DNA of 16,763 nucleotides from Minisyncoccia bacterium (GCA_044356725.1 JBIKVS010000016.1:1-16763); one strand, 5' to 3'; positions 988-16,763 are shown, counted from the first letter of the stretch. Program-made: numbers and translations. Notes: generated from the letters alone by a model not told the origin.

Positions 988-2031
988 TCACTTCTTAAGT
1001 GGGTGAAAATTCTCATGAGTGTCTTTGGCATAATTATCTGAAGCATGCACATATTTTGTAGTAGTCTCGAGGGATTCGTGGCCGAGTAATACTTTGATAG
1101 CGGCAGGATTGGCCCCTGATTCAGCTAAATAGGTTGCAAAACCATGCCTAAGAGTATGGGCGGAGATAGGGTAGGGTATATTGAGTAATAATCTATAGGA
1201 TTTTATTTTAGATTGAAGATAATTCTCGGATATATGGGAGTTGAGTAGGGAAGAGGGGAGAGTCTGATCTTTGATTTGCTCATCTAGGGTATCAAAAGTT
1301 TTTTTGGTGATGAATACATATTTGAATTGATGTATATACTCCCCTGTTTGATATTGAGAGGGGAGAGCCTCTTTGATTATTTCTTGTCTAGCTTCAAGAT
1401 ATTGATCCAGTATAGCTTTAGCTCTGGGGGTAAGATACACAAATCTTTGCTTATTCCCCTTTCCTTTTATCAAAATTTTAGAATCATCTTGATGAATTTG
1501 ATCAATGGTTAAATGTGTAACTTCAGAAATTCGCATTCCTGAGGCAAAAATTAATTCTAATATAGTTTGATTCCTGAGCCCAATAAATGGATTTTTCTCA
1601 AGATGTCTTGGAGCTTCTATGAATTGAATTAGAGTTTCTAGCTCTGGTAAATGTAATTTGTACTTCCCTAGCTTCATTAATTTGATTTGCTGAGGTAATA
1701 ATGGACAAGGATAATCATTATCTATAAGGTATACAAAATATGACCTAATACTGGTTAGCATTCGGTTGATAGTTTTAGGCTCTAGAGGTTTGGCTGATTG
1801 GTTATTTATTTTTAGTTTTAGTAATTGTCTATCTTCCGCCATTAGATCTGCTTGATAGATGGTGATAGTTTTTTTAGTTATATTGATAAATTCAAAACTA
1901 TTATCATTTAAGAATTTTTCAAAAACTAATAAATCTCTCTCATAATTACGGATTGTAGTCTTTGAGTAGTTACTAGTAGTCAAAAAAAGTAAAAAGTCTT
2001 CTAATAGGGGCAGTTTTTGGCTTATTGGCAT
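988..2031 (-). CDS. Tyrosine recombinase, XerC/XerD family
   Basis: N-terminal SAM-like region (YSKTTIRNYERDL) and a full catalytic set: SGMRISE (R), KGKGNKQR (K), HTLRH (HxxR), LLGH, TTKY (Y). Confidence 0.95.
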   Translation of the reverse strand: MPISQKLPLLEDFLLFLTTSNYSKTTIRNYERDLLVFEKFLNDNSFEFINITKKTITIYQADLMAEDRQLLKLKINNQSAKPLEPKTINRMLTSIRSYFVYLIDNDYPCPLLPQQIKLMKLGKYKLHLPELETLIQFIEAPRHLEKNPFIGLRNQTILELIFASGMRISEVTHLTIDQIHQDDSKILIKGKGNKQRFVYLTPRAKAILDQYLEARQEIIKEALPSQYQTGEYIHQFKYVFITKKTFDTLDEQIKDQTLPSSLLNSHISENYLQSKIKSYRLLLNIPYPISAHTLRHGFATYLAESGANPAAIKVLLGHESLETTTKYVHASDNYAKDTHENFHPLKK

Positions 2032-2824: not shown

Positions 2825-3322
2825 TTAATCTTTATTTCTGACAGCTAAGCTATTATAGGTAGCTAATAAAAATATTATCAAGAATAATACTCCACATATA
2901 AATGGCATAGTTATAAATCCAAAGTAGTTTACAGGAGCATCGGCACAGTTAATTCCATTAGGATCACATAATAAGGACTTAGCAATCCAGCCTCTTTGTA
3001 AACTATAATGATAAATATCTAGAATTAGTCCTAATACAGTTAAAGGTATAATATAATCTGTAAATTTATTATCATTCTTGAATATTCCCACAGATGCAAT
3101 AGGGAAAATAGGGAACATCAAAACTCTAGCATACCAACACAAATTACAAGCAGGTATGCCTAATTCAGGGTTAAACCACTCCCCTCCTCCACTTAAATGT
3201 AGGAAAAAATCTCCATAATATAAATAATAGCTAGCTAATAAAATTGCTAGAAGTGATAGTAAAAATATTGCATATTGAGAAAAAATTACTAACTTTTTAT
3301 TATATTTAACATTCATTTTCAT
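2825..3322 (-). CDS. dsbB: Disulfide bond formation protein, DsbB/BdbC family
   Basis: PACNLCWYAR (CxxC..R), four hydrophobic helices and a second Cys pair (LCDPNGINC). Confidence 0.9.
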   Translation of the reverse strand: MKMNVKYNKKLVIFSQYAIFLLSLLAILLASYYLYYGDFFLHLSGGGEWFNPELGIPACNLCWYARVLMFPIFPIASVGIFKNDNKFTDYIIPLTVLGLILDIYHYSLQRGWIAKSLLCDPNGINCADAPVNYFGFITMPFICGVLFLIIFLLATYNSLAVRNKD

Positions 3323-9081: not shown

Positions 9082-11682
9082 TTATTTACCATGACACTTT
9101 TTATACTTTTTCCCACTACCACAAGGGCAAGGATCATTACGCCCGACTCTCGTAATAGTCTCTCCTGATATCATATTTTGTGGTTGCTCTACTTGAGTAT
9201 TCAAAGTTGGCTCTACTCTTAGAATGGTATTAATATAGTTAGTTTGAATAGAGGTTAATAATTTTTCAAATAACATAAAGGCCTCATTTTTATATTCAAT
9301 CAAAGGGTCTCTTTGAGCATAACCTCGAAGTCTAATACCGGTCTTGAGATAGTCTATAATTTCTAAATGATCCATCCATAAATTATCTAATGTTTGAATA
9401 TAAACTGAATTCATAATAGCTTGTAGTTGCTCTTCTGAAATAGAGCTAAATCTATTTTGCAATATATCTTCTATTGTCTTTACTAAATAATCGGTAATGG
9501 CTTCTTTTTTACTATCTATAGTCCCTTCCTGGTCTCTAATATTTTCTAAATTATTACCAAAATCTAATTTACTTCCAATTAAACCATTAATATCCTCTTT
9601 GATAGCCTTCAAATCCCACTCTCTTGTACTTTCACTAGTTGTATAGAAAGAAACGACTTTGTATACATTTTCTTTAATTAAATCCGTAGTTTGTTCCTGT
9701 AAATCTGTTTTTTGTAGAATTATATCTCGTCTTTTGCGATATACAATTTCTCGCTGTTTATTCAATACATCGTCGTATTCTAATAAATGTTTACGAGAGT
9801 CAAAATGAAATCCTTCAATCTTTGTCTGAGCACCTTCAATAGATTTAGCAATCAAAACATTCTCAATTGGCTCATCTTCAGGAAAGTTAAATCTCTCCAT
9901 CAAGCCCTTAATTCGCTCACCCCCGAAGATTCTCATAATTTCATCATCAAGTGAAAGATAAAACTGAGTTGTCCCAATCTCTCCCTGTCTACCAGACCTT
10001 CCTCTCAGCTGATTATCTATTCTCCTTGCCTCATGTCTTTCACTACCGATTACATAAAGTCCTCCTAATTCTAAAATCTCTTGTTTTTCTTCTTCTGTAG
10101 CAGCAGCTCCTCCTAGCTTAATGTCCACACCACGACCTGCCATATTAGTAGCAATAGTAATAGCCCCCTTTTTACCGGCATCGGCAATGATTAAACCTTC
10201 AGCTTCATGCTGTTTAGCATTCAGAATTGTATACTTCAGTCCAAATTTATCGAAAACTTGACCTAAAGCCTCACTCTTTTCAATAGAAGCTGTACCTAAT
10301 AATACTGGTTGTCCTTTTTGTGACAATTCTTTTACCTTTCTAGCTATTGCTTGGAATTTAGCTTTTTCATTTTTATAAACCACATCAGCTAAATCAACTC
10401 TCTTAATCTCTCTATTGGTTGGCATAATTACCACATCCAAATCATACACTTTATGAAATTCCTCCGCACTAGTCACCGCTGTACCAGTCATACCGGCCAA
10501 CTTATCATACATACGGAAGTAATTTTGCAGAGTAATCGAAGCTAGAGTTTTAGACTCTTGCTGTACAGTGACACCTTCTTTGGCTTCTATAGCTTGATGC
10601 AAACCTTCCGAGTATCTTCTACCAGGAGTTAATCTACCAGTAAATTGATCTACAATTATAATCTCCCCATCTTTAACTACATATTCTTTGTCTAAATGAA
10701 ATAAAGCCTGAGCCTTGAGAGCTTGTTCTAAATGATGTACAAAGGCAATACCCTTTTCTTCATATATATTATTTATATTCAGAGCTTTTTCTACCTTATC
10801 TATTCCAGATTCTGTGATATTTACAGTTCGCATTTTCTCATCTACAGTATAATCTGTCTCAGCCTTCAGATTAGGTATAATAGATGCAAAAGTTTTATAG
10901 AGAATAGGAGATTCTGCATCAGGCATAGAGATAATCAATGGTGTTCTCGCCTCATCAATCAAAACACTATCCACCTCATCTACAATGGCAAAATAATACT
11001 CTCTTTGTACCATATTATCCCTAGAAGTAGCCATATTATCTCTAAGATAATCAAATCCAAATTCATTATTAGTCCCATAAGTAATATCCGCCTCATAGGC
11101 TGCTTTACGAGTGACTGAAGTCAAAAATTCAGCTTCCACCTCATAAGAACCTTTTTCATCTCTTTCTCTATCTTCCTCAGGCACTTCCTTGTATAAATAA
11201 GAACCCTCCCCTGTCACAATACCTAAAGAAAGCCCCAAAAAATTATAAATTTGCCCCATCCAGACCGCATCTCTTTTGGCAAGATAATCATTTACCGTCA
11301 CTACATGCACTCCCCTACCAGTCAGAGCATTTAATACAGTTGGCAAGGTTGCTACCAGAGTTTTACCTTCCCCAGTTCTCATCTCAGCAATTTTACCTTG
11401 ATGCAAAACAATACCTCCAATTAACTGCACATCAAAATGTCGCTGTCCTAAAGTCCTCCTAGAAGCTTCTCGTACTATCGCAAATACTTGTGGTAAAACT
11501 TCATCCAGACTAGTACCCCGCTCCTGTATATCTAATTTTATTTGTGAAATCTCCGACTTTAACTCTTCATCTGACTTAGCTTTATAAGTCTCTTCTAGTG
11601 AATTAATCGTATCTACAAATGGTTGAATTTTTGATAATGTTTTAGAATTTGGGTCTCCGAATATTTTTTGTAAAAATGTCAT
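9082..11682 (-). CDS. secA: Preprotein translocase subunit SecA
   Basis: AEMRTGEGKT, VTVNDYLA, DEVDSVLIDEARTPLIIS, ATNMAGRG, QLRGRSGRQG and C-terminal SEC-C motif GRNDPCPCGSGKKYKKCHG. Confidence 0.99.
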   Translation of the reverse strand: MTFLQKIFGDPNSKTLSKIQPFVDTINSLEETYKAKSDEELKSEISQIKLDIQERGTSLDEVLPQVFAIVREASRRTLGQRHFDVQLIGGIVLHQGKIAEMRTGEGKTLVATLPTVLNALTGRGVHVVTVNDYLAKRDAVWMGQIYNFLGLSLGIVTGEGSYLYKEVPEEDRERDEKGSYEVEAEFLTSVTRKAAYEADITYGTNNEFGFDYLRDNMATSRDNMVQREYYFAIVDEVDSVLIDEARTPLIISMPDAESPILYKTFASIIPNLKAETDYTVDEKMRTVNITESGIDKVEKALNINNIYEEKGIAFVHHLEQALKAQALFHLDKEYVVKDGEIIIVDQFTGRLTPGRRYSEGLHQAIEAKEGVTVQQESKTLASITLQNYFRMYDKLAGMTGTAVTSAEEFHKVYDLDVVIMPTNREIKRVDLADVVYKNEKAKFQAIARKVKELSQKGQPVLLGTASIEKSEALGQVFDKFGLKYTILNAKQHEAEGLIIADAGKKGAITIATNMAGRGVDIKLGGAAATEEEKQEILELGGLYVIGSERHEARRIDNQLRGRSGRQGEIGTTQFYLSLDDEIMRIFGGERIKGLMERFNFPEDEPIENVLIAKSIEGAQTKIEGFHFDSRKHLLEYDDVLNKQREIVYRKRRDIILQKTDLQEQTTDLIKENVYKVVSFYTTSESTREWDLKAIKEDINGLIGSKLDFGNNLENIRDQEGTIDSKKEAITDYLVKTIEDILQNRFSSISEEQLQAIMNSVYIQTLDNLWMDHLEIIDYLKTGIRLRGYAQRDPLIEYKNEAFMLFEKLLTSIQTNYINTILRVEPTLNTQVEQPQNMISGETITRVGRNDPCPCGSGKKYKKCHGK

Positions 11683-11716
11683 ATACTATATTTTCTATCG
11701 ATTAATCTATTTATAT

Positions 11717-11745
11717 AGTATACGCTAATTTTAAGGAAAGTTCAA
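11717..11745 (-). promoter_or_regulatory. Sigma70 promoter for secA, TTGAAC-17-TATACT
   Basis: Minus strand TTGAAC TTTCCTTAAAATTAGCG TATACT, about 35 nt upstream of the secA ATG. Confidence 0.6.
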
Positions 11746-11754
11746 ATTGAATTA

Positions 11755-12885
11755 TTATAAGCCACCACAACCAGATTTTGGACTTCCAGTAGTTTTAACT
11801 TTTGATGGATCTGGATTTCTTGAACTATCTAAAAGAATATCATATGGATTAACTGTTGAACCGTTGATAAAAACATCGAAATGTAAATGAGGTACACCCT
11901 CTGATCCTTTTTCCCCTAATTTTGCAATTTCTTGTCCAGCTTTTACTTCTTGCCCCACAGATACTGAAACTACACTATTATGAGTATATCTTGTTTCAAC
12001 TCCATCTTTATGCCTAATTCTAACATCATTTAATCCTCTTTCATTAATTTTTATTACTGTCCCGTCTCTAAAAGCTAATATAGGTTGACTTCCCCATCCT
12101 TGACGATTAAATGGTACCCCACCTGGAACAACATCTGCCCAGCAAGGAGTAAAATCTATGCCCGTATGCGGTCCATACTCTCTGGGGGCTCCATAAAGTT
12201 GTCCACCAGATGGTCCCTGATATAAATAAGTAACTGGAAACACACTCTCACCAGGTTTTGGGACAATATTAGATGGTCCAGCTGGACCTCCTATAGTAGA
12301 GCCACTCCCAACCGAAGGTATACTACAATTACCCTGCAATAAACCTGGATTTATAACATTTATAATTATAAATATAGACAAACCTATAATCAATCCTGTA
12401 ATAGTATTAGTAAATATTTCCTTAGCCTGATTTACCTTACCAGCATTGACACCTGCAGTTACATAAATATAACCTCCATACAAAAACATTCCCAATACTG
12501 AGGTTAATAATACTGCAAACCCTAAATACCATAAACCAGTCATTAGCTGACATAAATTACTTATTCTACCTACTCCTGGGAAATTAGTATATGACTCATA
12601 GGTAACAGTACCTGCTGTAGTGGTCGGAGTAGTTGATTGTGTAGTTGGTGTTTGAGGTGTGGTCTGCCCAGTGGTTGGTGGAGTGTTTGTTCTTCGATTC
12701 TCATTTTGAGTATTAGTACCAGCATTAGGAAGTGTAGTTGGTTGACTATTTTCAGTTATAATTGGATTAGCATCTGGTAATTGCGGCCTGTTCTCAAATC
12801 TATCATTCTGAGCAAATACAGTCTGAAAGTTAAATACTATTAAAAATAATATTGCACCTTTTAAAAATAAATTTTTATTATTCAT
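11755..12885 (-). CDS. CPR pilin (VirB2/TrbC-like two-helix hairpin) fused to a C-terminal M23 peptidase
   Basis: Signal peptide (..VFA), P/T/Q-rich linker, pilin core (GGYIYVTAG..KVNQAKEIFTNTITGLII..INPGLL), then M23 motifs H240TGID244, A..DGTV, RYTH, V.VGQ.VKAGQ.IA.LG and PH333LH335F. Confidence 0.88.
   Translation of the reverse strand: MNNKNLFLKGAILFLIVFNFQTVFAQNDRFENRPQLPDANPIITENSQPTTLPNAGTNTQNENRRTNTPPTTGQTTPQTPTTQSTTPTTTAGTVTYESYTNFPGVGRISNLCQLMTGLWYLGFAVLLTSVLGMFLYGGYIYVTAGVNAGKVNQAKEIFTNTITGLIIGLSIFIIINVINPGLLQGNCSIPSVGSGSTIGGPAGPSNIVPKPGESVFPVTYLYQGPSGGQLYGAPREYGPHTGIDFTPCWADVVPGGVPFNRQGWGSQPILAFRDGTVIKINERGLNDVRIRHKDGVETRYTHNSVVSVSVGQEVKAGQEIAKLGEKGSEGVPHLHFDVFINGSTVNPYDILLDSSRNPDPSKVKTTGSPKSGCGGL
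12316..12621 (-). repeat. Pilin core, direct repeat copy (306 bp; partner 14278-14583)
   Basis: 95 of 102 aa identical between the two pilins by manual alignment; includes a 47-nt perfect DNA match. Confidence 0.9.
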
Positions 12886-12961
12886 ATTTTAATTTTTGTA
12901 AAATTATAAGGCAAGCAGTTGTCTTGTTTACCCTAAGTAGCAGAGCGGGTAGAGGGATTCG
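12862..12961 (-). repeat. About 100-bp direct repeat: tRNA-Gly 3' end + leader + first 8 codons of pilin (partner 15286-15384)
   Basis: Only 2 substitutions and 1 indel between the copies by manual alignment. Confidence 0.92.
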
Positions 12962-13016
12962 AACCCTCATCATCTGCTTGGAAGGCAGAGATAATTAGCC
13001 CTTATACGATACCCGC
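12944..13016 (-). tRNA. tRNA-Gly (TCC), copy 2
   Basis: Acceptor stem GCGGGTA/TACCCGC, anticodon arm TCTGC-CTTCCAA-GCAGA, T arm GAGGG-TTCGAAT-CCCTC; CCA not encoded. Confidence 0.96.
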
Positions 13017-13025
13017 ATTGAGCAT

Positions 13026-13035
13026 ATTATAGCAT
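13026..13035 (-). promoter_or_regulatory. Extended -10 promoter (TGcTATAAT) for tRNA-Gly copy 2
   Basis: Minus strand ATGCTATAAT ends 9 nt upstream of the tRNA 5' end. Confidence 0.6.
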
Positions 13036-13071
13036 ATTTTTTATAAAATGTACAGAGTAAAATTTATCACT

Positions 13072-13815
13072 TTATTCCACAATTACAGATTCATACCAAT
13101 ACTTACCTTTCATACTACCATCATAGCTTAATTCCTGATTGCCAGCATTTACAAAGATTAACTTACTTATAGCTGAGCCATCTTCAGTTGGCTTTACAAA
13201 AAACTTATTATTTATATCAGCATAATTAGCACAAGTTTGAGTAGAGTTTTTAGGCTTAATACTATATCTACCATTTTTTTCCTCTACTCTACACCCTACT
13301 TTTTCATCAGCTATTAATATTTGTTGAGTTATAATCTCTGGAATAGTATTAAATCTAAGATTAGGGTCAATATTTATAACTTCTATTGATTGACCGGATT
13401 CTTTAGGCCTATCAACACTATGTAGATATATAGTACCAGAATTGGTAGCAAAGTCTGAAGGAGTTATCATAAAATATTCTTCTGAATTTATCGATGCTCT
13501 AATTTCATATGAAAGTGCAATACCAAACTCTTCAGAATAAAAGTAATCAATAAACTCCGAGCTTCTAGAATCTGGTAATTTATTCCTAAGATTCGTAGGC
13601 ATACTTCCTAGGGCTCTAAACCGTAAATCACCACTTCCTTCTATAATATTGTCAATTGCTGTGTTTGTACTAATCAATACATCTTCTTCTCTATTTTCAA
13701 CATTAATTTCTTGCACCATCGAAGATCTGTTACCTAATAATACATAAACCATAATAATCCCAATAATTACTATACCAATTATTATAATCCCCATAAAAAC
13801 TTTTTTTCTATTCAT
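13072..13815 (-). CDS. Hypothetical membrane-anchored protein, cotranscribed with the 495-aa pilin
   Basis: 247-aa ORF starting 6 nt after the pilin stop; KK plus hydrophobic N-terminal anchor; soluble domain with 2 Cys. Confidence 0.8.
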   Translation of the reverse strand: MNRKKVFMGIIIIGIVIIGIIMVYVLLGNRSSMVQEINVENREEDVLISTNTAIDNIIEGSGDLRFRALGSMPTNLRNKLPDSRSSEFIDYFYSEEFGIALSYEIRASINSEEYFMITPSDFATNSGTIYLHSVDRPKESGQSIEVINIDPNLRFNTIPEIITQQILIADEKVGCRVEEKNGRYSIKPKNSTQTCANYADINNKFFVKPTEDGSAISKLIFVNAGNQELSYDGSMKGKYWYESVIVE

Positions 13816-13821
13816 AAATAT

Positions 13822-15309
13822 CTACCTTAAAGGATATTGTTGAAGTACTTGACGCTCTGCCGTTAGCATCTCGTCCAATGCTGCACTTGATACATTACCG
13901 TTTGGGAATCCTAAGTGAATATGTGTTGGATGTCCTGCAGGATCAGTTATAGGACCAAAAAATTGAATTCCATATTTTCTAGCAATAGGACTCCATGCCC
14001 TATCTAGTGCTTGCATCCTAGGAAGCCAAACTGATTGAGGTTCACCTGGCCTCCTCCAATCTGTAATATCTAAGGCTTTATCTTGATAATGTAAAGAACC
14101 AATAGAGTGCCCCCCAGTGATTGGTCTACCACCATTCCAAGCTGAATGTTCTCTTACTCTTAATCCCATTCTACTTTCAATAAACCTTCCTACCTCCACA
14201 ACACTTGCAGTTGGACCACTAGTAACAGGTCCCCCAAAAGTAGGCTGACCAGCTCCAGTACCTGTACTACCTATAGGTGGTATACTACAATTTCCTTGTA
14301 ATAACCCTGGATTTATAACATTTATAATTATAAATATAGACAACCCTATAATCAACCCTGTGATGGTATTAGTAAATATTTCCTTAGCCTGATTTACCTT
14401 ACCAGCATTGACTCCCGCGGTTACATAGATATACCCTCCCCACAAAAACATTCCTAATACTGAGGTTAATAATACTGCAAATCCTAATAGCCACAGAGCG
14501 TTCATTAACTGGCATAAACTACTAATCCTTCCAACTCCTGGGAAATTAGTATAAGATTGATAGCTCACTGTCCCTGCTGTGGTGCTAGCTGAGCTAGTAC
14601 TAGCTGTAGATGAGGAGTCTGTAGCCGCCCCTCCTGCAGCACTAGTAATAGCCGCATCATATTCCTGATAAGATTGATATTCTTCTGGCTTAATTATGAC
14701 TACTCTATCTCCGAATTTAGCTTTTATTTTGGCTGCTATAGCATCTGTTACATCTCTTTCTGAGAATCCGTTATATTCTGCTGCTCCAGTAGCATTAGCA
14801 TTACTATAAGTATTGCCTCCTGGAGTATCAGGAATTCGTCGTCTTGTATGATCCATTGGGATAATAATTTTACTACCACTCCCTACATTTGGAGCTATAA
14901 CATTGTCAATAAGATCTGTAACATAAGGGCTATTAGCAACTCCAGTTGGAGTCCCATATTGATCTAATAATAATCTATGTGCACCAACTTCTATTAAAGC
15001 TGCATTTGTAACTCCTGCGCTATTAGCTACACTTAGAGTTTTATTTGCTTGATTTACAGCAGTTGTCCCAACTCCTGGTTTCTTGCGAATACTGAATCTG
15101 TCTGCTGACGCACTAAGACCAGATTGTAATGAATTTGCAAATGTACCAGAACCTATCACATGAGCTCCTCCCTCATATCCTCCTGGCGTATACGCATCTG
15201 TATGTATAGAGACAACTGAGACTCCTTGTCCGTATACAAAATTAAAATTAAAGGCTGCTATTGTGATTATAGTTATAGCAACTTGTAAAAATAAATTTTT
15301 ATTATTCAT
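13822..15309 (-). CDS. CPR pilin fused to an N-terminal circularly permuted Amidase_3-like domain and a C-terminal M15/LAS-type Zn peptidase-like domain
   Basis: Signal peptide; VSIH36, ALIE107VG, IIIPMDH154, E184RDVTDAIA; S/T linker; pilin core; SLH407YQDKALD414 and H463IH465LG. Confidence 0.78.
   Translation of the reverse strand: MNNKNLFLQVAITIITIAAFNFNFVYGQGVSVVSIHTDAYTPGGYEGGAHVIGSGTFANSLQSGLSASADRFSIRKKPGVGTTAVNQANKTLSVANSAGVTNAALIEVGAHRLLLDQYGTPTGVANSPYVTDLIDNVIAPNVGSGSKIIIPMDHTRRRIPDTPGGNTYSNANATGAAEYNGFSERDVTDAIAAKIKAKFGDRVVIIKPEEYQSYQEYDAAITSAAGGAATDSSSTASTSSASTTAGTVSYQSYTNFPGVGRISSLCQLMNALWLLGFAVLLTSVLGMFLWGGYIYVTAGVNAGKVNQAKEIFTNTITGLIIGLSIFIIINVINPGLLQGNCSIPPIGSTGTGAGQPTFGGPVTSGPTASVVEVGRFIESRMGLRVREHSAWNGGRPITGGHSIGSLHYQDKALDITDWRRPGEPQSVWLPRMQALDRAWSPIARKYGIQFFGPITDPAGHPTHIHLGFPNGNVSSAALDEMLTAERQVLQQYPLR
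14278..14583 (-). repeat. Pilin core, direct repeat copy (partner 12316-12621)
   Basis: Encodes TTAGTV...GNCSIP, nearly identical to the other pilin. Confidence 0.9.
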
Positions 15310-15384
15310 ATTTTAATTTTTGTAAAGTTATAAGGCAAGCAGTTGTCTTGTTTACCCTAAGTGCTGAGCGGGTAGAGGGATTCG
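15286..15384 (-). repeat. About 100-bp direct repeat including an 18-nt tRNA-Gly 3' fragment (15367-15384)
   Basis: Matches 12862-12961; its last 49 nt (15336-15384) also match 15497-15545 with 2 substitutions. Confidence 0.92.
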
Positions 15385-15512
15385 GTCACAAATAATTTTC
15401 CTGACGAAAAATTTTCGCTACCCCGTCTCGCGGTGTTCGCCTTGTACTTCGTACAAACTCACACATCGCTCCGACTTTCTCATCCCTCTCGAAAGACAAG
15501 CAGTTGTCTTTC
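15367..15512 (-). other. tRNA-linked structured mini-element (161-bp repeat period)
   Basis: AGAGGGAT (15489-15482) pairs with the tRNA-derived ATCCCTCT (15381-15374), enclosing hairpins such as TTGTAC-GAA-GTACAA (15442-15456). Preceded by the hairpin GAAAGACAA-CTGC-TTGTCTTTC (15491-15512). Confidence 0.65.
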
Positions 15513-15527
15513 TTACCCTAAGTGCTG

Positions 15528-15600
15528 AGCGGGTAGAGGGATTCGAACCCTCATCATCTGCTTGGAAGGCAGAGATAATTAGCCCTTATACGATACCCGC
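15528..15600 (-). tRNA. tRNA-Gly (TCC), copy 1
   Basis: 73 nt identical to 12944-13016; full cloverleaf. Confidence 0.96.
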
Positions 15601-15613
15601 GTTGATATAAAAT

Positions 15614-15642
15614 ATATTAACAAATTTATTGAGTATAGTCAA
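15614..15642 (-). promoter_or_regulatory. Sigma70 promoter for tRNA-Gly copy 1, TTGACT-17-TAATAT
   Basis: Minus strand TTGACT (15642-15637), 17-nt spacer ending TGT, TAATAT (15619-15614). Confidence 0.65.
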
Positions 15643-15673
15643 ATTTTTTATCATTAATTTAATATAATTAGTC

Positions 15674-15702
15674 TTGCAAATTTCACAACTTCAAGGTATA
15701 CT
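15674..15702 (+). promoter_or_regulatory. Sigma70 promoter for tRNA-Trp/fur, TTGCAA-17-TATACT
   Basis: TTGCAA 15674-15679 and TATACT 15697-15702, 10 nt before the tRNA. Confidence 0.7.
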
Positions 15703-15712
15703 TAATCTACTT

Positions 15713-15786
15713 AGGCGCATAGTTAAATGGTATAACAATGGTCTCCAAAACCATCGTCGTAGGTTCGATTCCTACTGTGCCTGCCA
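15713..15786 (+). tRNA. tRNA-Trp (CCA)
   Basis: Acceptor AGGCGCA/TGTGCCT, anticodon arm ATGGT-CTCCAAA-ACCAT, T arm GTAGG-TTCGATT-CCTAC, encoded 3' CCA. Confidence 0.96.
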
Positions 15787-15812
15787 AATTTATAAGCTAT
15801 AGATTTATATCT

Positions 15813-16235
15813 ATGAACCTTGACTCTAAAGTTTTTGAATATTTACGTAATCATAATATTAGAATTACTAAACATATACAAGCAATTTTAGATATTATAA
15901 TTGATAAATCTACACCTATTGATGCTAGAGCTATATATAATAATCTTATATCTAATAGTCAATTAATCGATTTATCCACAATTCATAGGATTTTAGATAA
16001 ATTACATAAAATTAGACTCCTAGATGCGATCTATGGTGAGAAAGCTAATTATTATGAATTATCATCTCAGTTCCTACCCCATCATCATCATTTTACTTGT
16101 ATCAAATGTGGTCAAATTACTGATATAGATATATGTATGATGAATCCTATTCTTAGTTCTCTTGAAGATATTGGGACTCCTCTTTCTCACTCTTTTGAAA
16201 TCAAAGGGATTTGCAATAATTGTAAATTAAAATAA
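15813..16235 (+). CDS. Fur family transcriptional regulator (Fur/Zur/PerR), 140 aa
   Basis: IRITK..AIL, STIHRIL, HHHHFTCIKCG and GICNNC. Start moved to ATG 15813 because the track start lies within tRNA-Trp. Confidence 0.92.
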   Translation: MNLDSKVFEYLRNHNIRITKHIQAILDIIIDKSTPIDARAIYNNLISNSQLIDLSTIHRILDKLHKIRLLDAIYGEKANYYELSSQFLPHHHHFTCIKCGQITDIDICMMNPILSSLEDIGTPLSHSFEIKGICNNCKLK

Positions 16236-16267
16236 AAAAGAGCTTTTTTATCAGCTCTCTTTTATTT
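16230..16267. terminator. Probable bidirectional terminator between convergent fur and rpmG
   Basis: AGAGCT/AGCTCT stem flanked by AAATAAAA and TTTTATTT. Confidence 0.5.
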
Positions 16268-16282
16268 ATCTAAGATAATAGA

Positions 16283-16441
16283 TTATTTTTTCATCTCTCT
16301 GTGTAGAGTATGTCGTCGTAAATCTGGATTAAATTTCTTTAATTCCAACTTCTCAGTATTCTTCTTTTTATTCTTACGAGTATAATATCCAATTCTACCA
16401 GTTTCTGTACACTGTAATTTAATTAAGTTTTCTTGACTCAT
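16283..16441 (-). CDS. rpmG: 50S ribosomal protein L33 (zinc-free type), absent from the ORF track
   Basis: Manual translation: MSQENLIKLQCTETGRIGYYTRKNKKKNTEKLELKKFNPDLRRHTLHREMKK. Confidence 0.96.
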   Translation of the reverse strand: MSQENLIKLQCTETGRIGYYTRKNKKKNTEKLELKKFNPDLRRHTLHREMKK

Positions 16442-16475
16442 ATTCTTATAATCTTAAGTATAAATTAATATAGGG

Positions 16476-16548
16476 AGCCGATAATCAGGATTGAACTGAT
16501 GACCTCACCCTTACCATGGGTGCGCTCTACCGACTGAGCTATATCGGC
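16476..16548 (-). tRNA. tRNA-Thr (GGT)
   Basis: Acceptor GCCGATA/TATCGGC, D arm GCTC/GAGC, anticodon arm CACCC-ATGGTAA-GGGTG, T arm ATCAG-TTCAATC-CTGAT. Confidence 0.96.
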
Positions 16549-16568
16549 ACATAGTGCAGTATTGAAAT

Positions 16569-16597
16569 ATTATATACTAATACTACACTTTTGTCAA
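16569..16597 (-). promoter_or_regulatory. Consensus sigma70 promoter TTGACA-17-TATAAT for tRNA-Thr/rpmG
   Basis: Minus strand TTGACA (16597-16592) and TATAAT (16574-16569). Confidence 0.85.
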
Positions 16598-16633
16598 AAG
16601 TTTGTATTAGATAAGGAGATCGTAGACAATTTG

Positions 16634-16763
16634 TAAAGTAAAAGACCCCGCCTTAAAAGGCAGGGCTTTTACTTTATATAACTATATTTTCCTTCGCTCG
16701 CAAGCTCTTCGCTTGCTTTAGCTATCGGAAAATTTGGACATTCATCCCCGCCCTTAAAAGGGC
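16634..16763. mobile_element. Paired related hairpins resembling IS200/IS605-family ends (possible non-autonomous element; runs off the window)
   Basis: TAAAGTAAAAG-ACCCCGCCTTAAAAGGCAGGG-CTTTTACTTTA (16634-16676) and ATTCATCCCCGCCCTTAAAAGGGC at the window end share CCCCGCC(C)TTAAAAGG. Confidence 0.45.

Follow-up and report, generated by a model that had tools for sequence, protein, structure and literature searches.

It is not yet clear how ultrasmall bacteria of the candidate phyla radiation (CPR), or Patescibacteria, cope with the walls of the cells on which they live, and no function is known for their essential VirB2-like pilins. A locus that touches on both matters lies in a stretch of 16,763 nucleotides from a Minisyncoccia bacterium (GCA_044356725.1 JBIKVS010000016.1:1-16763; the whole stretch is called the window below, and its genome G000). 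Between positions 11,755 and 15,600, on the minus strand, two tRNA-Gly genes precede two open reading frames (ORFs), pilinA and pilinB, in which a pilin-type core is joined to predicted wall hydrolases; a candidate inhibitor gene, ORF247, follows pilinA. With natural alleles in at least 25 domain combinations and near-isogenic strains that differ by one enzyme, the locus is a concrete case for asking what such proteins do and on whose wall. The reading that we favor, with about even confidence, is that the sequences describe a polymorphic, surface-displayed wall-hydrolase effector with a partner, acting at contact on the peptidoglycan of another cell, either a host or a competitor.

Two paralogous proteins with a common pilin-type core

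The ORFs, the tRNA genes and their minus-strand order agreed with an earlier prediction made from the sequence alone (the original prediction): promoter-like site, tRNA-Gly(UCC), pilinA, ORF247, promoter-like site, an identical tRNA-Gly (74/74 nt), pilinB and secA (Table 1). As also predicted, both proteins start with the same eight residues (MNNKNLFL) and contain a 102-residue core, and outside these two segments they do not align. The core identity, originally put at 95 residues, was counted as 94/102. At the nucleotide level the cores differ at 42 of 306 positions, with 27 synonymous and 8 non-synonymous codons. Because these differences are mostly synonymous, the sequences indicate that the core duplication is old and under purifying selection. 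A word-indexed database search with the core returned 65 proteins, whose cores were 73-100% identical.

The comparison of profiles argues that the core is a member or derivative of the VirB2-like T4SS_pilin family (T4SS, type IV secretion system), since it matches pilins encoded elsewhere in the same genome. The latter form a six-gene PF18895 array (G000:C20:25931-31627, L001-L006), all members of which score over the Pfam cut-off. Alignment of a 71-sequence core profile with the six array pilins by hhalign gave a probability of 97.7 and an E value of 2e-12 over 62 columns. The Pfam profile itself was borderline: in a six-frame genome search pilinA scored 28.8 bits, above the cut-off of 26.6, and pilinB 24.3 bits, below it. 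The pilin-like character originally proposed for the core is nevertheless borne out by the strong profile-profile match. The array includes a 469-aa pilin with a C-terminal extension of ~200 aa that has no Pfam match beyond T4SS_pilin, and a 299-aa pilin that begins with a Cys-rich module resembling the N2 module of some secA-linked alleles. From this likeness, array pilins and secA-linked pilins seem to exchange modules.

A signal-like segment and two hydrophobic helices with a short loop, a feature of T4SS_pilin, are present in both proteins. In pilinA the hydrophobic stretches cover residues 6-26, 262-296 and 310-339, and the AlphaFold2 (AF2) model places helices at 4-21, 263-302 and 305-332; the loop between the membrane helices contains Lys. 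VirB2-type pilins have an established topology in which hairpin and signal peptide leave both ends outside the cell, and by analogy both ends of pilinA and pilinB should lie outside the cell. A Cys residue just outside each core helix (C266 and C341) is invariant in the core alignment, which makes a disulfide clamp of the core possible. The window also contains a DsbB-family gene (2825-3322, minus strand, 36.1 bits). Together with the invariant Cys residues of the hairpin and of ORF247 it hints at disulfide-stabilized surface proteins. In size and surroundings the proteins differ from stand-alone small pilin subunits: they have 376 and 495 residues with large extra domains, and their neighbors are tRNAs, ORF247 and secA. 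Structural comparison of the pilinA model by VIA-align placed the R388 conjugative pilin at Z 6.5, a score that helical hairpins reach by chance.

A pilin-type core could serve to dock hydrolases to a T4SS or pilus machine, where they would locally open the producer's own wall for assembly in the manner of VirB1 or PrgK. The homology of the core to the array pilins is consistent with this, as is a VirB4-like ORF on another contig (G000:C10:10100-11950, minus strand, loci L113/L114; a 619-aa frame with AAA_10 at 35.3 and CagE_TrbE_VirB at 18.3 bits). The high conservation of the core, set against a mean identity of 25% for array pilins in the available text of PMC12102498, suggests a conserved protein contact. 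In the same text most Patescibacteria with VirB2 homologues have no VirB1 homologue, and multidomain T4SS hydrolases such as PrgK are cited. The locus, however, lies away from both virB4 and the pilin array, and no virB4 was found beside the array on C20. Moreover, an assembly enzyme has no obvious need for the strain-level swapping and the co-varying partner described below, and we consider a VirB1-like role quite improbable.

Hydrolase domains

PilinB carries a clear Pfam match to Peptidase_M23, one of the predicted domain families. The NCBIfam equivalogs for this domain all scored below their cut-offs, so that no specific orthologue could be assigned, and two other M23 genes elsewhere in G000 score higher.

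The predicted M15/LAS family was recovered, for the C-terminal domain of pilinA, through related proteins. A Pfam scan of the domain gave no M15 or VanY family at E values up to 1. Sister modules align with it at 30-32% identity over 106 aa (BLAST E ~5e-7, in a small set) and by hhalign with a probability of 95, and these homologous modules match PF08291 (Peptidase_M15_3) at 26-27 bits. The pilinA motifs SLHYQDKALD and HIH align with HYQGLAVD and HTH of the homologues. An LAS/M15-like nature of the domain is supported by sequence via the modules that match PF08291.

For the N-terminal domain of pilinA, N3, the original prediction of Amidase_3 stood as a remote relationship, apparently with permutation, and failed as a Pfam match above cut-off: the family scored 16.1 bits (cut-off 27, E 0.012) over residues 173-206 only. 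An exhaustive phmmer search with N3 found 37 proteins with matches to N3 residues ~112-200, and Amidase_3 was present at the aligned place in 8 of the 10 distant homologues scanned. With hhalign the C-terminal third of N3 aligned to the start of the Amidase_3 domain (probability 98.8) and the N-terminal part to its end (probability 69). Because the two alignments come in swapped order, N3 is apparently a remote, circularly permuted relative of Amidase_3. Candidate His and Glu residues were picked by eye, and the Foldseek rows for LytH, Rv3717 and Ami1 were weak.

The AF2 model of pilinA, with a mean predicted local distance difference test (pLDDT) score of 66, consists of an alpha/beta N-domain, the hairpin and the C-domain; block means over N3 were mostly 67-92 and fell to 46-58 at residues 161-180. 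Structure databases added little. A search of the Protein Data Bank (PDB) with the pilinA sequence gave a single chance row (E 0.66), Foldseek of the model against the PDB gave none at E <= 0.001, and all VIA-align matches stayed below Z 8, among them generic helical hairpins, the C-domains of PLP enzymes and that of VldE (Z 6.2). Other alleles of the locus carry VanY, M15_3 or Beta-lactamase2 domains. Their C3 and C4 domains have CHAP/NlpC/Amidase_5 neighbors in the ESM Atlas at 0.82-0.87, below the 0.9 level, and these are leads only.

Polymorphism and probable recombination

The exchange of wall-hydrolase domains that had been predicted was found among the relatives. The flanks of the 65 core proteins match M23, VanY, M15_3, Beta-lactamase2 or nothing. 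Clustering gave 9 N-types, in addition to proteins without N-domain, and 7 C-types in 25 N x C combinations; the type counts are approximate, as class C2 was joined by single linkage and comprises four subtypes, some connected only by a shared linker. Because C2 is heterogeneous, the true number of C-types is above 7. Type N3 is paired with C1, C2 and C3, and the VanY type N4 with C1-C4.

Comparison of the interval across relatives showed that the locus is not invariant, with single- and two-cassette loci and differing enzymes. The tRNA-delimited cassettes, proposed as a general arrangement, occur in a subset of strains; ten distinct relatives have tRNA-Thr, tRNA-Trp, one tRNA-Gly, a single pilin gene and secA. 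Some loci are redundant: L070 is partly duplicated in L071 and L077, and L039 and L040 recur as L079 and L075. Where the family's other genera are concerned, the pilin gene is located just 5' of tRNA-Gly, with VanY and M15_3 or with other domains. Strong core matches number two in G000, none in G001 (93% complete) and one in each of the other 10 genus relatives.

Switching is also seen between close relatives. At the secA-proximal position of loci whose SecA is 88-93% identical to that of the window, C1, C2 or C5 was found with five N states. One close strain has 491/495 identical residues in pilinA, 241/247 in ORF247 and 188/191 in residues 1-191 of pilinB; that the three lie on the same contig is deduced from equal contig size (20,072 bp). 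In this strain M15_3 seems to replace the M23 domain of pilinB, and the switch occurs directly after the core motif NCSIP. A nucleotide comparison of the window with nine loci showed that collinear flanks break exactly at the domain borders. Hydrolase domains are exchanged among close relatives in this way, and the switches fall where the core begins or ends.

When 27 core DNA sequences were placed in a maximum-likelihood tree, from which 5 duplicate loci were omitted, cores of the same genome paired with each other (support 85/86 for the window and 100/100 for G015, whose two cores are 14.5 kb apart), and identical flank types were scattered. Such a pattern speaks for recombination and conversion in which the core and the tRNA/leader repeats take part. 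Locus L066 consists of a single gene, N4-core-C1, as would be expected if a two-cassette locus had lost the segment between its cores.

A tandem arrangement of this kind might also result from collapsing or chaining the alleles of two strains at the repeated tRNA and core during assembly. The contig is of metagenome type, and the short-read contigs of two DNA runs (X1 and X2) end at the repeats, none covering the whole stretch. Nevertheless, in these runs, which come from different studies, the sequences unique to each cassette fall on contigs with comparable mean depth (12.4-17.4 in X1 and 78.3-88 in X2). The two-cassette order recurs in independent contigs of relatives, complete in L070 and partial in L065 (from tRNA to tRNA), L068, L071 and L072. 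The region 5' of the second tRNA-Gly (P2) and the ORF247 gene within the cassette are conserved among all two-cassette loci, and the two ORF247 genes of G000 match its two cassettes. The tandem duplication is no assembly artefact, a possibility to which we assign hardly any weight.

The candidate partner ORF247

ORF247 encodes an N-terminal membrane helix, a low-complexity stretch, a variable middle part and a conserved C-terminal half with two invariant Cys residues. Exactly one homologue was found in each of 11 genus relatives, and two in G000, which corresponds to one ORF247-type gene for every pilin gene. In G003 and G007-G010 the single homologue is situated just 5' of tRNA-Thr. By analogy with L042-L046, the G000 orthologue was expected past tRNA-Thr, close to the end of the window; tblastn gave none at this place, and the second copy is on contig C15.

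Clustering of the variable regions of 17 genomic or metagenomic and 51 database homologues gave classes VAR1 (35), VAR2 (16), VAR3 (12) and VAR4 (3) and two singletons. VAR2 accompanies a C3-type pilin in all five known contexts (L065, L068, G003 and two pairs deduced from equal contig sizes), whatever the N-type. The sister species of G003 with M23 (C1) pilins have VAR1 on a near-identical C-terminal half. VAR4 was found with the pilinA C-domain type in two cases of one lineage, the window and one close strain. VAR3 occurs with C4 (L070/L071), yet the G008 copy, with a C2d pilin, is also VAR3. The variable region of ORF247 thus tracks the C-domain type of the neighboring pilin as a correlation, and the co-variation resembles an effector-immunity pattern, though not a clean one. 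The sequences make a partner role of ORF247 a well-founded lead, which we hold to be somewhat more probable than its negation.

Structural comparison gave leads only. Foldseek with the ORF247 model found nothing in the PDB at E <= 0.001, and VIA-align matches were all below Z 8 (BT_1490 at 6.5, Tsi3 at 5.7, PsbP/Mog1 folds). A predicted complex of the pilinA C-domain with the ORF247 ectodomain scored 0.00, which is no evidence either way.

Whose wall might be cut

The locus encodes two paralogous exported proteins, both built on the highly conserved VirB2/T4SS_pilin-type hairpin. In the mechanism that we propose, the signal-like segment and the hairpin would put both protein ends, with their predicted peptidoglycan hydrolases, outside the cell, where pilinA would display an Amidase_3-like and an LAS/M15-like domain and pilinB a Thr/Pro-rich spacer followed by M23. 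Homologous recombination or gene conversion, with crossover at the core and at the tRNA-Gly/leader repeat, would make new enzyme combinations, delete the pilinA-ORF247-tRNA block or fuse the two genes. ORF247 would be the cognate partner, most likely an inhibitor shielding the producer's own wall. Because specificities are swapped at the strain level, the partner co-varies and separate, higher-scoring M23 genes exist, the enzymes would be expected to face a changing, probably foreign substrate.

Several points weigh against this effector reading. A two-helix membrane protein would most simply cut the wall of its producer, and the pilin locus is syntenic next to secA in 10 of 11 genus relatives, as a housekeeping locus would be. 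The PF18895 scores by hmmscan (25.4 bits for pilinA and 22.8 for pilinB) are below the gathering score of 26.6. No T4SS gene is adjacent to the locus; the genome, 99% complete, yielded no coupling protein of the VirD4 type, and its sole VirB4-like ORF is that on C10. The second ORF247 gene of G000 (G000:C15:4160-4939, L127), of class VAR1, lies between rpoC and RNase Y. VAR1 is not type-specific either: it occurs with C1 and C5 and, in two-cassette genomes, with the C2b or C1 secA-proximal pilin. Three of the pilin/ORF247 pairings are based on equal longest-contig sizes only, the catalytic motifs (M23, LAS and the candidate His/Glu of N3) were read by eye, and the genomes surveyed are kin, so that counts are not independent.

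A self-directed role is still plausible in view of the membrane tether, the synteny seen throughout and the lack of specificity of VAR1. The proteins would then be housekeeping autolysins that remodel the cell's own wall, with the hairpin a mere anchor, ORF247 a regulator as in ActH-LytH or the EnvC-amidases, and domain turnover reflecting relaxed or lineage-specific wall chemistry. Conservation of the locus beside secA and tRNA-Gly across the genus fits this explanation, and so do the ORF247 paralogue near rpoC, the occurrence of VAR1 with several enzyme types and the fact that no canonical Amidase_3 was found elsewhere in G000. It is less easily reconciled with the swapping of different bond specificities between near-identical strains and within the genus, which is unusual for essential autolysins. 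N3 is missing from most relatives and therefore dispensable, two separate M23 genes give stronger matches, and the variable region of ORF247 switches along with the C3 domain. On balance we regard a housekeeping role as possible but doubtful.

A more far-reaching version of the effector reading would make the hairpin a working T4SS pilin in a conjugative-type pilus built by the VirB4-type machine of the genome and bearing, along the filament or at its tip, swappable hydrolases that open the wall of a touched cell, with ORF247 variants as matching immunity proteins, core recombination at a tRNA-Gly hot spot and, in addition, a new class-wide family of T-loop-associated mobile or regulatory RNAs, each a copier of its target tRNA's 3' end. 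In this full form we judge it unlikely. The modular, polymorphic pilin-hydrolase design of the original prediction was right; arming of a pilus, attack on a host and full read-through are conjectural. It overlooked that the ORF247 partner co-varies, and also the tRNA-trailing RNA element described below.

If the enzymes do act on foreign walls, their specificities could predict the host or competitor range of uncultured freshwater Paceibacteria. The constant core with its tRNA/leader repeats would also illustrate how a reduced genome can diversify a surface weapon.

Probable transcription from the tRNA-Gly genes

Between the 3' part of the tRNA and codon 8, leader included, the two cassettes agree at 96/99 positions, which points to constraint or recent conversion. 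The near-identity of the leaders was as predicted; the leader of pilinA does not directly follow its tRNA gene, as had been stated, since a trailer of 34 nt, an element of 108 nt and a 19-nt tRNA-end repeat intervene. Promoter-like sites precede both tRNA genes. Such matches occur at chance frequency in this AT-rich stretch (22 seen, 18.0 +/- 4.2 expected). The region 5' of the first tRNA-Gly is conserved with single-cassette relatives. A scan for terminators gave none on the minus strand in the intervals that separate the tRNAs from the pilins.

In RNA library X20, contigs with 0-4 differences run from the 3' part of the first tRNA-Gly via the trailer into the 108-nt element (15459-15542), from this element via the tRNA fragment into the pilinA leader (15332-15413), and from the second tRNA-Gly into the leader of pilinB (12912-12972). 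They fit read-through from the tRNA promoters to 22-26 nt before the start codons; contigs of this kind cannot show single transcripts, may include DNA carry-over, and their depths cannot rank genes. Contigs of X19 and X20 cover little of the coding sequences and are uninformative about their transcription. Of the predicted read-through, the part into trailers and leaders is therefore matched by RNA-library contigs and the part into coding sequences is not. Most likely pilin transcription begins at the tRNA-Gly promoters, the RNA contigs reaching the leaders only.

A structured RNA behind tRNA genes

The 108-nt element between the trailer and the 19-nt tRNA repeat is GC-richer than its surroundings and offers a lead, independent of the pilins, to an RNA family or mobile element not yet described. 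Two more copies are present in G000, at G000:C10:36957-37094 (plus strand) and G000:C9:69427-69563 (minus strand), directly after tRNA-Leu(UAA) and tRNA-Glu(CUC), respectively. Behind each comes the 3' portion of its own tRNA, copied from T-loop position 56 onward; at tRNA-Glu this forms a perfect 57-nt direct repeat that includes the trailer.

By BLAST the element was found in 14 of 16 genomes of the family and in none of 24 genomes of other families. Of its 31 matches, 29 lie 35-213 nt behind a tRNA on the same strand, representing 10 isoacceptor types, and an exact 14-nt copy of the tRNA 3' region follows 24 of these 29. The 28 distinct copies support two hairpin domains and a stem that pairs the 5' end of the element with the repeated T-arm strand. 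In this structure the paired cells amount to 95.1%, and at 14 pairs both partners have changed; none of 500 shuffles reached the observed values, and slid controls were 36-46% paired.

Of 151 genomes sampled from the class, 62 (in 49 of 123 genera) gave covariance-model matches to the element, with 1-9 copies each. Of 151 sampled across the phylum, 8 did so, G000 and a second member of this class among them. Distant families, too, have the element behind tRNA genes (tRNA-Pro, Arg, Tyr, Val and Ser), and the 3' copies again match. Orthologous tRNA-Gly sites differ in the presence of the element. Tandem doublets ~165-365 nt apart occur behind one tRNA, each unit again followed by a tRNA 3' copy (L112 at G009:C1:115731-116032, G009:C6:44448-44751, G008:C5:14519-14822, G013:C2:17787-18231 and G065:C9:17238-17548); repeated insertion or unequal crossing-over would fit them.

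Rfam 15 gave no match to the element at E <= 1 over 11000-16763. A literature search for a tRNA-trailing RNA of this kind found nothing relevant, and a preprint on tRNA mimics concerns, in its available text, other Rfam motifs. A guide scaffold of TnpB type and a retroelement RNA were ruled out, as neither PF07282 nor RVT_1 was found in G000. A hammerhead-like GAUGAG was dropped, the stretch not being conserved in the tRNA-Leu copies, and an acceptor-stem mimic formed with the trailer fits, by eye, tRNA-Gly and not tRNA-Glu. The element is a candidate for a new RNA family; it could be a miniature mobile element associated with the T-loop, an RNA processed from the trailer, or both at once.

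Integrative elements that target the T-loop duplicate tRNA 3' ends, and Thermoproteales have transposed tRNA introns. The present element resembles these in that the repeat extends from the T-loop to the tRNA end or beyond and that inserts occur at many tRNAs. It differs from them in that only ~108 nt lie between the repeats and there is no integrase. The repeat here is copied from each target tRNA, and the inserted structured RNA shows covariation and forms pairs between its 5' end and the T-arm strand of the repeat. The upstream tRNA gene is complete, so that splicing is not needed.

Genome and contig context

The window is an entire contig (C19) of G000, an 897-kb genome of 20 contigs with 33% G+C that is 99% complete. 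Half or more of its sampled words were held by 18 DNA runs from 18 studies, 17 of them lake water metagenomes and one an aquatic metagenome; the source may be among these runs. ARAGORN found 39 tRNAs in G000; tRNA-Gly occurs only at this locus, as two genes with UCC as the only anticodon, and tRNA-Asn is absent from the 39. This set reflects either assembly gaps or a very reduced decoding set.

The tRNA-Thr/tRNA-Trp/fur/tRNA-Gly block is kept across the genus. In the window the listed start of the Fur-family ORF (15738-16235, plus strand) overlaps tRNA-Trp (15713-15786, same strand), and the true start is probably further downstream. A tyrosine recombinase gene at 988-2031 (minus strand), 11 kb from the locus, encodes a Phage_integrase domain (105 bits) and an N-terminal SAM-like domain; it could be XerC/D or an integrase.

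Table 1. Features of the locus and its surroundings, in window coordinates
Feature	Positions	Strand	Basis or description
secA	9082..11682	-	Conserved anchor downstream of the locus
pilinB, 376 aa	11755..12885	-	Signal-like N-terminus, Thr/Pro-rich linker (N1), core, M23 domain
Peptidase_M23 domain, pilinB aa 267-347	11845..12087	-	Pfam E 2.9e-21, 75.9 bits (cut-off 28.7); HTGID (HxxxD), HLH (HxH)
Core B, pilinB aa 90-191	12313..12618	-	Repeat; alignment to core A
Leader of pilinB	12886..12942	-	RNA-library contig covers 12912-12972
tRNA-Gly(UCC) copy 2	12943..13016	-	ARAGORN; Rfam; identical to copy 1
Promoter-like hexamers 5' of second tRNA-Gly	13026..13054	-	TGTACA, 17-nt spacer, TATAAT, TG; consensus scan 10/12
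ORF247	13072..13815	-	Membrane anchor at the N-terminus, then a variable middle and a conserved, beta-rich C-terminal domain; immunity-like candidate for a cognate partner
pilinA, 495 aa	13822..15309	-	Signal-like N-terminus, N3 domain, Ser/Thr linker, core, LAS-like domain
LAS/M15-like C-domain, pilinA aa 346-495	13825..14274	-	Motifs SLHYQDKALD (H-x6-D), HIH
Core A, pilinA aa 244-345	14275..14580	-	VirB2/T4SS_pilin-like helical hairpin, one conserved Cys on each outer flank
N3 domain, pilinA aa 28-226	14632..15228	-	Divergent, apparently circularly permuted Amidase_3-like fold
Leader of pilinA	15310..15365	-	96% repeat of pilinB leader
Repeat of tRNA-Gly 3' part, 19 nt	15366..15384	-	T-loop C56 to discriminator; sequence comparison
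tRNA-trailing structured RNA, 108 nt	15385..15492	-	Two hairpin domains and closing stem with the following tRNA fragment; 41 pairs
tRNA trailer, 34 nt	15493..15526	-	7-bp hairpin AAGACAA CTGC TTGTCTT; older copy of pilin leader start
tRNA-Gly(UCC) copy 1	15527..15600	-	ARAGORN; Rfam tRNA 58.4 bits; identical to copy 2
Promoter-like hexamers 5' of first tRNA-Gly	15614..15642	-	TTGACT, 17-nt spacer, TAATAT, TG; consensus scan 9/12

Comparison with known systems

Patescibacteria carry arrays of VirB2-like pilins (PF18895/PF04956), and such an array is essential in Southlakia epibionticum, according to the available text of PMC12102498, PMC12857230 and PMC10633639; array pilins have ~25% mean identity (PMC12102498, same limit). 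The present locus shares with these arrays the hairpin family, the multiple paralogues, the monoderm CPR background and a VirB4-like ATPase. Array pilins are short and divergent, whereas here the hairpin is 73-100% conserved, located beside tRNA-Gly and secA, and fused at one or both ends to wall hydrolases. Fusions of a pilin to a hydrolase were not found described in the literature searched, in the text available; supplementary tables may list VirB2 matches with extra domains.

The proteins also resemble wall hydrolases of other secretion systems. Hydrolases of monoderm T4SSs (the VirB1 analogues PrgK, TraG and CwlT) are anchored once, at the N-terminus, keep to one architecture and are encoded within the T4SS operon. 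Like them, the present proteins belong to a T4SS-bearing monoderm and are membrane-anchored, the known enzymes combining at least two wall-hydrolase domains (LytM/M23, CHAP, muramidase). In the present proteins a mid-protein hairpin of pilin type serves as anchor, domains are shuffled, and the partner gene co-varies.

Antibacterial peptidoglycan-hydrolase effectors with immunity proteins include Tae/Tai and Tse3/Tsi3 of the type VI secretion system and those of the killing T4SS of Xanthomonadales with Smlt3025-type immunity. Common features are the strain-variable amidases or endopeptidases and, encoded next to the enzyme, a small partner, exported or in the membrane, which varies according to enzyme type. 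Those effectors are soluble cargo with delivery tags, whereas the present predicted enzymes are fused to a membrane/pilin hairpin, and the default partner class, VAR1, is not type-specific. A further parallel is found in type IV pili, where modular pilins graft a functional module onto a pilin, as in Streptococcus sanguinis. There, too, a functional domain is displayed by fusion to a filament subunit, in an unrelated pilin superfamily and machine and with known modules that are adhesive instead of wall-degrading.

The VirB2-like pilins of Patescibacteria and the wall-hydrolase effectors are thus already known, separately. Within the literature searched, it is new that they are fused on an ultra-conserved core, that domains are shuffled in combination at a tRNA-Gly/secA site and that a partner co-varies.

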